Of a stretch of DNA of 64,000 nt, positions 5,045 to 23,757 are shown in pieces; positions within the stretch are counted from its first letter, which is position 1; every line of letters starts with the position of its first letter. Below the pieces are notes generated by a model, which made no database searches, had not been told where the DNA came from, and saw only the letters and a program-made list of their open reading frames with translations. The translations under genes and the position numbers were made by a program. The DNA comes from Octopus vulgaris (lineage: Eukaryota): positions 127,162,001 to 127,226,000 of the forward strand of contig OX597818.1 in the NCBI GenBank assembly GCA_951406725.2, given 5' to 3'.

Positions 5045-5119
5045 TATTGTACTCAAACATAATGCTGTTTCGATCATGCTGTGTCGATCATATTATTTTA
5101 TATAATATATATATATATA

Positions 5120-5320
5120 TTCTTCCAAGGAATCTAATGCGCTTGGCTTAGATTTTCCTTTGGAGCTGGCCAGATCGGAGCAATCTCAAGATTAATCAGC
5201 CGAAATTGCGAGGATGATCCGGTTCTTGACTGAAGATTGAAGGCTTCGAATGTCCCGTCCGTGTTTTTTGTATCGTCTTCTAAATGTTTCACGTTCTTGT
5301 CCCAGTTTGCATTTTTTTAC
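5120..5320 (+). mobile_element. (TA)n-embedded short element, family J1 copy A
   Basis: (TA)n on both sides; homologous to 7486-7677 and 22280-22516. Confidence 0.75.
5163..5246 (+). ncRNA. candidate non-circularly permuted hammerhead ribozyme (J1-A)
   Basis: GCAA-TC-TCAAGA ... CAGCC-GAAA-TTGC ... TCTTGA-CTGAAGA; stems I and III are flush with the core segments. Confidence 0.55.
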
Positions 5321-6265: not shown

Positions 6266-6625
6266 ACGTTTTTACCTGTCTCCTGTCAAAGTTCGTTTCT
6301 CCAGCTTTCACCACTTCATTTCGTTATGGTTTAACTGTTTTTTCTTACTGTCCTGTTTTTCTTTAGACCTCCGCAAATTCCAAATTTTCTTTAATTTGCT
6401 TTGCGAGAACGACTGTTTTAACGAAGACGTGTCTTGTCCCCACTTTCGAAATGCGGAGAAGATAAACATGGGACAACTGATGAAGGGATTGTTCTTTATG
6501 TTACCTGTCTTGTTTCCCTATATGTTTCTTTCGTTGTTCGAAAAGAAAGTTCGTTTTTCTTGTTTTTGTTTTTCCTGTTCTCGTTTTTCATGTTGTTCAC
6601 TTTTTTGATGCCCTGTACCCATATA
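6266..6625 (+). mobile_element. microsatellite-embedded short element, family J2
   Basis: Pyrimidine-rich element between (CA)n and (TA)n-like tracts; 3' half homologous to the reverse complement of 23580-23727. Confidence 0.7.
6428..6488 (+). ncRNA. candidate non-circularly permuted hammerhead ribozyme (J2), intact core
   Basis: CGTG-TC-TTGTCCC-cac-TTTC-GAAA-TGCG ... GGGACAA-CTGATGA-A-GGGA: GUC triplet, 7-bp stem I, wobble-rich stems II and III. Confidence 0.65.
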
Positions 6626-6677
6626 TGTATGTGTATATACATATATATGTAGGTATGTACATATATGAATGTATATA

Positions 6678-6728
<51 letters not shown>

Positions 6729-6730
<2 letters not shown>

Positions 6731-7078
6731 GACGGGGTTCTTCCAGTTTTCCGTCTACCAAATCCAGTCACAAGGCTTTGGTCGGACTAAGGCTATAGTA
6801 AAAGACACTTGCCCAAGGTACCACGCAGTGGGACTGAACCCAGAACCATGTGCTTCGGAAGCAAGCTTCTTACGACACAGTCACTCTTGAATATATATAA
6901 TATATAGGCGCAGGAGTGGGTGTGTGGCAAGTAGCTTGTTTACTAACCACATGGTTCCGGCTTCAGTCCCACTGCGTGGCACCGTGGGCAAGTGTCTTCT
7001 ACTATAACTTCGGGTCGACCAAAGCCTTGTGAATGGATATAGTAGACGGAGTCTGAACGAAGCCAGTCGTATATAGAC

Positions 7079-7080
<2 letters not shown>
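6729..7080. mobile_element. two head-to-head SINE S2 5' halves
   Basis: 6729-6885 (-) and 6906-7080 (+). Confidence 0.75.
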
Positions 7081-7125
<45 letters not shown>

Positions 7126-7128
<3 letters not shown>

Positions 7129-7677
7129 CAAAAAAACAAGGACGGGTCATTCGGAGTTTTCTTTCCTCAGTCGAGTTCCAGATTATCTTTTGCAATTTCG
7201 GCAAGTTGTACTCGAAATTGCACCAATCTGGCCAGTCCCAAGGAAAAATTAAGCTAAGTGCACTGATCTTTCTTTCTTGCTTCGACTACAATCCGTGCAA
7301 CATCTATATTCCTCCCTGAATCTGTCAAACCTTATGTCCCTGCCGTAAGGCTTTACTTCCACACACGCTAGCTTAATTTAATTCGTCCTTAGTCGAAAGA
7401 CACCCGTAGTATTTGTCCTGTTATTTGTATTTTACACCATTTCTCCGTTTTTTTTTCGTCCTTATTTTCGTATACATTCGCTGCTTTCTTCCAAGGAATC
7501 TAGTGCTCTTAGCTTAGTTTTTCCTTGGGGCTAGCCAGATTGGAGCAATCTCGAGTATAACCAGCCGAAATTGCAAAGATAATCTGGAACTCGACTGAGG
7601 AAAGAATACTCCGAATGACCCGTCCTTCTTTCGTCTGTCTGGATGTTTTGAGTTCTTGTCCCATTTTTGTATTTTTT
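7126..7677 (+). mobile_element. (TA)n-embedded element with inverted arms, family J1 copy B
   Basis: 7137-7268 is a diverged reverse complement of 7497-7627; (TA)n flanks. Confidence 0.8.
7528..7601 (+). ncRNA. candidate non-circularly permuted hammerhead ribozyme (J1-B)
   Basis: GCAA-TC-TCGAGT ... CAGCC-GAAA-TTGC ... ACTCGA-CTGAGGA; a second, diverged copy lies on the minus strand in the left arm. Confidence 0.55.
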
Positions 7678-22279: not shown

Positions 22280-22512
22280 TGTTTTTAACCGTTACTGTCT
22301 TCAAAAAAGTTCTTTTCGTTTCATGTTCGTCTCTGTTGCGTTTCATTCTTTCCTTCTGTGGCTGGCCGATTCAGAGCGGATCTCAGAATTAAACAGCCGA
22401 AATCTGCGATGAGGAATCGGTTTCTGACTGAAGAACGAAGGCTTTGAATGACCCGTTTGTCTTTTATGTTCGTCCCTTCGTGTATTTCATGTTATTTATA
22501 CATGTAGAGGTT

Positions 22513-22568: not shown

Positions 22569-23003
22569 CAACAATTGAGGGTAAAATTAATTAATTAATC
22601 AATTTCACCAAGTATTCAGTATGCAAAGGGACCATTTAAGGCGAATTCAAATTATTACATTATATAAAAGGGCTTAGTAAAATAAATTACTTTGCCGCAT
22701 ACTGAACTCATTAGAAATAGCAGCTAAAAAAACTTTTTTAAAACTATTTCCAATACTTAAAGAAAATCTCTCTCATATAGTGTTTGCTCAACTCAACTCA
22801 CGAAAGTATGAGGGTAGAAACATTAAAAAATCAAATGCAAAGGTTATTTGAGAACGTACGTTCTCAAATAATCTCAGAATTAAACAGCCGAAATCTGCGA
22901 TGAGGAATCGGTTTCTGACTGAAGAACGAAGGCTTTGAATGACCCGTTTGTCTTTTATGTTCGTCCCTTCGTGTATTTCATGTTATTTATACATGTAGAG
23001 GTT

Positions 23004-23533: not shown

Positions 23534-23579
<46 letters not shown>

Positions 23580-23583
<4 letters not shown>

Positions 23584-23757
23584 TATATAGGTACATGACG
23601 TCACACAACGTAAGCAACATACGAAAACAACATGAAATACGAAGACAGACTTGGGTTTGCGAACAACGAGAGAAACAAATGGAAAACAAGACAAATAACC
23701 TAAAGAACGACCCTTCATCATTTGTCGTTAAATGCTCGAAATGAGTAGATAGACTCC
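23580..23757 (-). mobile_element. family J2 copy with an inversion at hammerhead stem I
   Basis: Minus: CGACAA-ATGATGA-AGGGT plus the J2 3' end; plus: TTGTCG-TTAAAT-GCTC-GAAA-TGAG. Confidence 0.65.

Follow-up and report, generated by a model that had tools for sequence, protein, structure and literature searches.

The window analysed here, a 64,000-nt stretch of Octopus vulgaris DNA, contains a copy of a repeat family, J2, in which an earlier note recognised a complete but 'jumbled' hammerhead ribozyme at 6428..6488, and the locus raises the question of whether these letters can make a hammerhead and, if so, which strand completes its stem II. All segments named in that note are present in the sequence, including CGTG-TC (6428-6433), TTTC (6444-6447) and GGGA (6485-6488), and the core of the window copy is intact at every position (C3 U4 G5 A6 N7 G8 A9, G12 A13 A14, the A15.1-U16.1 pair and the NUH triplet), as had been claimed for GUC, GAAA and CUGAUGA. 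The non-circular block order, S-G-C, is that of the published type-SGC 'jumbled' hammerheads (Eckert et al. 2023; PMC10085705), the note being right that non-circular hammerheads have been published, and a descriptor covering all six block orders returned S-G-C at 6477 in the window; one weak reading in CGS order at this locus, with stems rich in A/U and G.U, was discarded. The expectation that Rfam would miss the motif was also borne out: there were no matches in the window at the gathering threshold, with E raised to 5 the 150 listed out of 152 weak matches (5 loci) included no hammerhead, and J2 did not fit the covariance models of hammerhead types I/II/III.

The part of the earlier proposal that did not survive concerns stem II. 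All three stems were said to close around the core; stems I and III do so, whereas for stem II built from TTTC and the GGGA that follows CUGAUGA, the last pair forms in only 8 of 61 copies and G.U predominates at two pairs. Compensatory changes instead assign as partner a strand about 25 nt upstream of the cut site (6407..6411, G10.1 to G10.5), which pairs with 6443..6447 (C11.1 = 6447) in a 5-bp helix that opens with G10.1-C11.1. We aligned 64 motif copies from 70 loci and compared 46 variable columns by mutual information, and the highest value was that of 6410 and 6444 (C-G in 19 copies, G-C in 20, mixed in 2); the neighbouring pair of 6409 and 6445 is A-U in 49 copies, G-C in 6 and mixed in 4. 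In stem III, 6431 and 6452 alternate between G-C (31) and A-U (16). With the upstream strand in stem II, 85.9-91.2% of cells are paired in stems I to III, and two-sided changes occur in II and III.

The segments at 6428..6488 are correct as far as they go, but the motif extends upstream to about 6367 and has three more helices, P, Q and H, so that its full order, read from sequence and covariation in J2, is Qa-H-IIa-Pa-IIIb-UH-Ib-IIb-GAAA-IIIa-Pb-Ia-CUGANGA-Qb. On the forward strand of the window, the predicted 5' strand of Q (6367..6370; CCCT in the family, with A at 6367 in this copy) has its partner at 6484..6487, immediately 3' of A9, where the earlier note had placed an A and GGGA (228 of 255 cells paired). 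Hairpin H (6371..6406; 751 of 818 cells) lies between Q and G10.1 and adjoins both. After the upstream strand of stem II comes the 5' strand of P (6413..6420), the counterpart of the helix by which stems I and II interact in type SGC, and its 3' strand follows at 6463..6469 (8 bp; 476 of 502 cells). The 5' strand of stem III and the GUC triplet occupy 6428..6433, with cleavage predicted after C6433 from sequence, covariation and a pile-up of genomic 5' ends described below. Next are the stem I strand 3' of the predicted cut, TTGTCCC (6434..6440; 388 of 435 cells), and the short linker between stems I and II that the note had seen, which is 2 nt long in the 64-copy alignment (6441..6442). The 3' strand of stem II then leads into G12 A13 A14 A15.1 and the 3' strand of stem III (6448..6455; GAAA at 6448-6451, TGCG at 6452-6455), and 6470..6483 holds the other stem I strand, GGGACAA (6470-6476), with CUGAUGA, C3 to A9 (6477-6483). 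We also tried GAAG at 6423-6426 as a strand of stem II and discarded it, because stems II and III are coaxial and one nucleotide cannot span the distance between their far ends.

The copy itself (approximately 6270..6730, forward strand) is 5'-truncated, decayed and non-coding, and it is preceded by a (CA)n run and has a (TA)n run at its end. There are mismatches in Q, in H (a basal C.A), in II (T6444) and in P (loss of one A, and T in place of G at 6469), and stem III has two G.U pairs that resemble CpG decay, the family majority being C-G and G-C; because of these lesions the copy is probably inactive, and to judge from its letters it is probably dead as a ribozyme. Minimum free energy folding of this copy gave no significant fold. 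Directly behind it, at about 6672-7125, a self-match revealed two copies of another short repeat in a head-to-head inverted pair (L001).

Helices P and Q also vary between subfamilies. One pair of P is U-A in 106 and C-G in 15 of 131 copies, the C-G form belonging to a subfamily, and in subfamily J2d helix Q is longer by a C-G pair (CCCCT/AGGGG). A downstream strand, 6490-6499, was considered as an alternative partner of Pb and rejected: it can pair throughout the main subfamilies (480 of 501 cells) but, read directly, is broken in J2d, where the upstream partner changes in step with Pb and the downstream candidate does not. The 131-copy column counts for 6490-6499 are unreliable, since J2d rows are shifted by one base 3' of P. 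The second-highest mutual information, partly independent of the stem II split, joins 6441 and 6489 (A/T versus T/A); no helix of the model accounts for it, and it may reflect a single tertiary pair or hitchhiking.

Tested on 57 copies with 2383 cells in all, the full model has 91.4% of cells paired, compared to 34-50% in slid controls, and the number of cells with a two-sided change exceeded that in all 500 shuffles; the number of pairs with a two-sided change showed no excess (278/500). A tree built without the four stem II columns was mostly unresolved, with 4 of 61 branches well supported. The pattern is consistent with about two events, rather than dozens, behind the compensatory changes of stem II, and the compensatory changes as a whole come down to few independent events, the subfamily splits. 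RNAalifold predicted no pairs on the 57 copies, and among four J2 copies folded singly, the minimum free energy fold contained H in all four and recovered stem I and sometimes Q, along with competing hairpins. In this arrangement, Q and H would place a four-way junction between A9 and G10.1. A descriptor for the split S-G-C order gave 22 matches in 467,666 nt, a sequence chosen for these families in which three matches are the window counted twice, and none in five block shuffles of that sequence searched on both strands, where a simple SGC descriptor gave one; the motif is thus more than chance would produce.

J2 is a non-coding, Penelope-like repeat family of about 800 nt with many hundreds of copies in the genome. 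A DNA search of the 2.8-Gb genome gave 1607 first-look candidates, 40 of which were scored, and exact J2 27-28-mers occurred 308, 125 and 853 times. The retroelement setting proposed in the earlier note agrees with the hallmarks of non-autonomous Penelope-like elements (PLEs) that we found: copies are 5'-truncated and share a 3' end in (TA)n followed by a tail of about 40 nt, their targets are microsatellites, the unit wraps onto its own start in partial tandems of 700-850 nt (L017, L010, L085), and 5' ends often carry an inverted copy (L014, L017, L022, L030). No ORF was found in J2 units, which lack the reading frame that defines a Naiad, with a GIY-YIG endonuclease at the N-terminus and a reverse transcriptase at the C-terminus. 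Matches to GIY-YIG and Naiad endonucleases led to no autonomous partner, with no J2 beside the 22 loci fetched there, and we saw no sequence similarity between J2 and Naiad_Obim. The connection between J2 and Naiads is therefore one of common layout and insertion habits, and, to judge from the shared ribozyme layout and (TA)n targeting, J2 would be mobilised by a Naiad protein. The core is intact in 35 of 64 motif copies and damaged in 29, and A13 is altered in 19 of 126 ungapped copies. The earlier note had named equal conservation of core and flanks as an outcome that would refute its proposal, and this is what we found (93.2% core, 92.6% 3' flank); such equality is expected of insertions that decay neutrally, and selection is visible between subfamilies instead. 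A diverged 3' fragment of J2 (73% identity) lies at 23570-23726 of the window on the reverse strand; it starts inside stem I and has C3 changed. At one locus (L013), the sequence upstream of the J2 copy contains an open frame with helicase-like motifs, which we take to be Helitron/PIF1-like, and this frame extends as far as the J2 tail. A metagenome scan with a J2 25-mer gave no matches.

Evidence for cutting comes from genomic 5' ends. The patterns used to gather copies all lie downstream of the predicted cut and thus put no selection on how far each copy reaches upstream. In a set of 90 loci (anchor at +27; two loci share one junction), 36 of 90 copies start at 0..+24, all within 0 to +21, compared to 7 of 54 at -25..-1 (p 6e-4), and 9 of 47 start in the 75 nt beyond -25. 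A further set of 60 loci was anchored at about +170; three loci were dropped (one duplicate, one inverted partner, one rearranged), four were set by hand (internal deletions or a misplaced end), and, as to overlap, two loci are shared with the first set and one is an inverted arm at a locus of that set. Here, 15 of 44 copies start at 0..+24 compared to 0 of 29 at -25..-1, none of the 44 starts at +25..+49, and there are 0-4 starts per 25 nt from +149 to +25. The pile-up stops at the predicted phosphate (starts at 0, 0, 0, 1, 1), one of the three zero-position starts being explained equally well by stem I microhomology. The Naiad family goes in the same direction less sharply (6 of 38 at 0..+9 versus 1 of 32 at -10..-1), as does J1b (8 of 24 versus 1 of 16), in which a further 6 of 30 start at +25..+44 and the pile-up spreads to +42.

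Of the J2 copies that extend as far as the motif, about a third end no further than 24 nt from the cut, and the genomic ends suggest that J2 RNA is cleaved in vivo; cleavage would be partial, since the remaining copies stem from uncut RNA. On the simplest reading of these ends, a third or more of J2 templates ended at the predicted cut. J2-like sequence was also present in three raw RNA runs of a related species and in one contig set; the reads show no sharp ends, which, in unstranded cDNA, speaks neither for nor against cutting. In the same runs (X21-X23), reads show inverted junctions (L007:1546 and 1594), and a divergent family keeps the common 3' part, but its CUGAUGA, itself intact, is surrounded by P, I and Q strands of other sequence.

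The layout found in J2 is also present, built from other sequence, in J1a, J1b and J1c and in the Naiad_Obim-like copies that this genome contains. J1a has a Q of 5-6 bp and an H of 8 bp, J1b has Q in two parts, no H and a C-G to U-A change in P, and J1c is a further variant of the split layout. The assignment of J1 to the S-G-C order in the earlier note holds, with descriptor matches at 5230, 7595, 22428 and 7170 (minus). J1 copies of three subfamilies with split S-G-C lie in the window at about 5110-5260 (+), 7170 (-), about 7500-7620 (+), about 22340-22460 (+) and 22919 (+); in the last the core is at 22919, and this copy starts no more than about 3 nt from the predicted cut. At 94-98% identity, J1b is the youngest family. 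Genome repeats match the published octopus Naiad sequence, and the 3'-end motif of Naiad_Obim occurs 189 times in the genome with the same parse. At one locus (L168) a Naiad is decayed but of full length, its N-terminal endonuclease lying 4.4 kb upstream of the split motif, and another locus (L163) holds an internally deleted Naiad.

For 53 of the 54 published Naiad consensi (PMC8557442 S5), the final 420-600 characters were parsed by eye rather than computed. Within these stretches, the split layout was clear in 10 of 53 3' ends from five phyla, namely Obim, Ovul, Amil, Aacu, Anas, Movir-2, Chem-3, Plae, EuTe and, with a stem I of only 2 bp, Bfor; Esco probably carries it with a weak stem II. 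Type CSG was clean in six nematode Naiads (Nbra-1, -2, -3, Hcon, Hpol, Asuum), two spider families had the S-G-C order without the upstream strand, and no hammerhead could be parsed in the examined stretch of the other 34. Bivalve and hemichordate 3' ends have other conserved multi-stem motifs without a hammerhead core. One such motif, in two clams, may resemble a twister ribozyme. Canonical PLEs of the octopus genome, with a C-terminal endonuclease, have ordinary type I motifs downstream (L047, L050, L181). One such family has many intact 781-aa ORFs with C-terminal GIY-YIG (L046, L047, L056, L057 and others) and a second has 784-aa ORFs, which suggests that both were recently active. At L183:3420-3500, a J1-like upstream fragment is fused to a canonical PLE endonuclease region, the fusion point lying 2 nt before the J1 cut site with short microhomology. 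The earlier note had called J1 and J2 independent-looking families; since the whole layout is common to both and to Naiads, it is more likely that their motifs descended from one design than that they are independent inventions.

We consider it likely, from sequence comparison, that the J2 family RNA is a self-cleaving hammerhead in S-G-C order with its backbone opened between A9 and G10.1. That J2 is instead an ordinary type-SGC ribozyme, as the earlier note had it, with stem II made by GGGA after the extra A and with the upstream helices as accessories or an off-state, seems unlikely to us. Hammerheads can carry one nucleotide after A9, as a viroid example shows. Three downstream pairs (G-C, G.U, G.U) can form in 58 of 64, 62 of 63 and 56 of 62 copies, the downstream strand can pair with Pb in the main subfamilies, as counted above, and one spider Naiad is contiguous SGC by eye; PMC10085705 allows insertions of at most 1-2 nt after A9. 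The last downstream pair, however, is missing in all but those 8 of 61 copies and its position covaries with the upstream strand; furthermore, in J1a, J1b and the coral and jellyfish Naiads, no G10.1 within 2 nt after A9 pairs beyond one bp, whereas the upstream strand pairs over 4-6 bp.

The genomic ends bear on whether the motif cuts at all. A conserved non-catalytic relic, serving as a recognition or pause signal, with the pile-up made by stalled reverse transcriptase or a nearby transcription start, would fit the roughly 60% of copies that read through the predicted cut, the frequency of A13 variants and, though not decisively, the unstranded RNA reads without sharp ends. We hold it improbable nonetheless: every core letter is kept across families with unrelated stem sequences while N7 is free to vary, and the pile-up ends at the predicted phosphate; a stall would be expected at the 3' edge of the structure (+25..+49), and the absence of starts there in the second set argues against stalling. 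Cleavage could also require a dimer, or occur in trans between tandem units, in the way described for minimal Penelope hammerheads (PMC4209133), and the palindromic stem III of the main subfamily (CGCG) and the partial tandems would allow this. However, J1, the Naiad copies and the J2 subfamily with A-U at 16.2 all have a non-palindromic stem III of 4-5 bp, and tandem units are 650-850 nt apart, and we give this reading almost no weight.

If the split hammerhead is correct, Q, H, stem II and the A9/G12 core would meet in the four-way junction, with stem II still stacked on the core A9/G12 pairs, Q and H stacked on each other, and the active site left as in other hammerheads. The 2-nt linker and helix P would hold stem I alongside stem II, a task that falls to loop contacts in ordinary hammerheads, and the chemistry would be the usual G12/G8 cut after C17 (6433). 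The ribozyme may cut read-through transcripts of partial tandem units, whose RNA would then be copied from the (TA)n/tail end by the reverse transcriptase of a Penelope-like element, likely a Naiad, acting in trans. The split order could have arisen if the ends of a type-SGC form were joined and the RNA was reopened between A9 and G10.1, and partial tandem duplication, a routine occurrence in these elements, offers a plausible route from the CSG or SGC forms of other Naiads. With less assurance than for J2 itself, we favour the broader view that Naiads across at least five animal phyla carry non-circular hammerheads (CSG, SGC and a seventh layout, whose catalytic core a four-way junction opens at A9/G10.1), and that cleavage sets the 5' end of a large share of octopus copies. 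If so, these ends would make visible in the genome the task of Penelope hammerheads, which is to fix where RNAs begin at the 5' side, and the junction inside the core would be a natural site for engineering switchable ribozymes.

In the mostly non-subscription literature searched, we found no non-circular hammerhead in animal retroelements, no core opened at A9/G10.1 and no hammerhead working with a helical junction there; the supplements of PMC10085705 could hold similar variants. The crystal structure of a pseudoknotted hammerhead, as described in the accessible part of PMC11300833, has a sharp turn at G8-A9 with G10.1-C11.1 kept, and it neither shows nor excludes a junction at A9/G10.1. A November 2026 paper mentions, citing others, variants with extra helices in the text available, and the cited paper that was checked contains no such passage. 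A July 2026 preprint on Penelope-derived retrozymes, in its available text, still lists three hammerhead types (bioRxiv 10.64898/2026.07.22.740005).

Among known systems, canonical PLEs and non-LTR retrozymes (PMC4209133; bioRxiv 10.64898/2026.07.22.740005) resemble J2, according to the available texts, in having a ribozyme in a PLE terminal repeat and a non-autonomous, tandem-prone unit, but their motifs are type I in circular order and often dimeric. Naiads, as described in the available part of Craig et al. 2021 (PMC8557442), share with J2 the (TA)n targets, partial tandems, inverted 5' copies and a 30-40-nt tail, and in Naiad_Obim and Naiad_Ovul the 3' end is the split motif itself, whereas J2 has no ORF. 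That text describes Naiads as lacking a canonical hammerhead and marks 'HHR_core' and 'HHR_half_core' strings that fit no descriptor, an open point that the split layout would explain. Type CSG (PMC10085705), previously known from two metagenomic sequences only, has the same cyclic block order as J2, and moving Pb-Ia-CUGANGA from the 5' to the 3' end interconverts the layouts; it differs in its contiguous block C and in having no Q/H junction. Closest are the type-SGC ribozymes (HRIMA-1 and variants) validated in vitro in PMC10085705, which, as presented there, share with J2 the S-G-C order, two pseudoknots, a 2-3-nt linker between stems I and II, an intact core and a fourth helix that connects stem I to stem II at their distal sides (P in J2). 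Unlike them, J2 takes the 5' strand of stem II from upstream of the cut, with Q and H inserted between A9 and G10.1, so that block C is interrupted, the downstream stem II failing at its last pair as counted above. In the part of PMC10085705 available, CUGAnGA and its stem II strand are assumed inseparable and insertions there are at most 1-2 nt; the six-permutation scheme depends on this contiguity, and a natural, covarying exception would widen the fold space, current descriptors then missing a whole class. J2 also differs in sitting in a repeat family of an animal genome: the type-SGC examples of that source come from metatranscriptomes only and from no genome of a known organism, and jumbled hammerheads, so far confined to metatranscriptomes and metagenomes, would here number thousands of copies in animal genomes.
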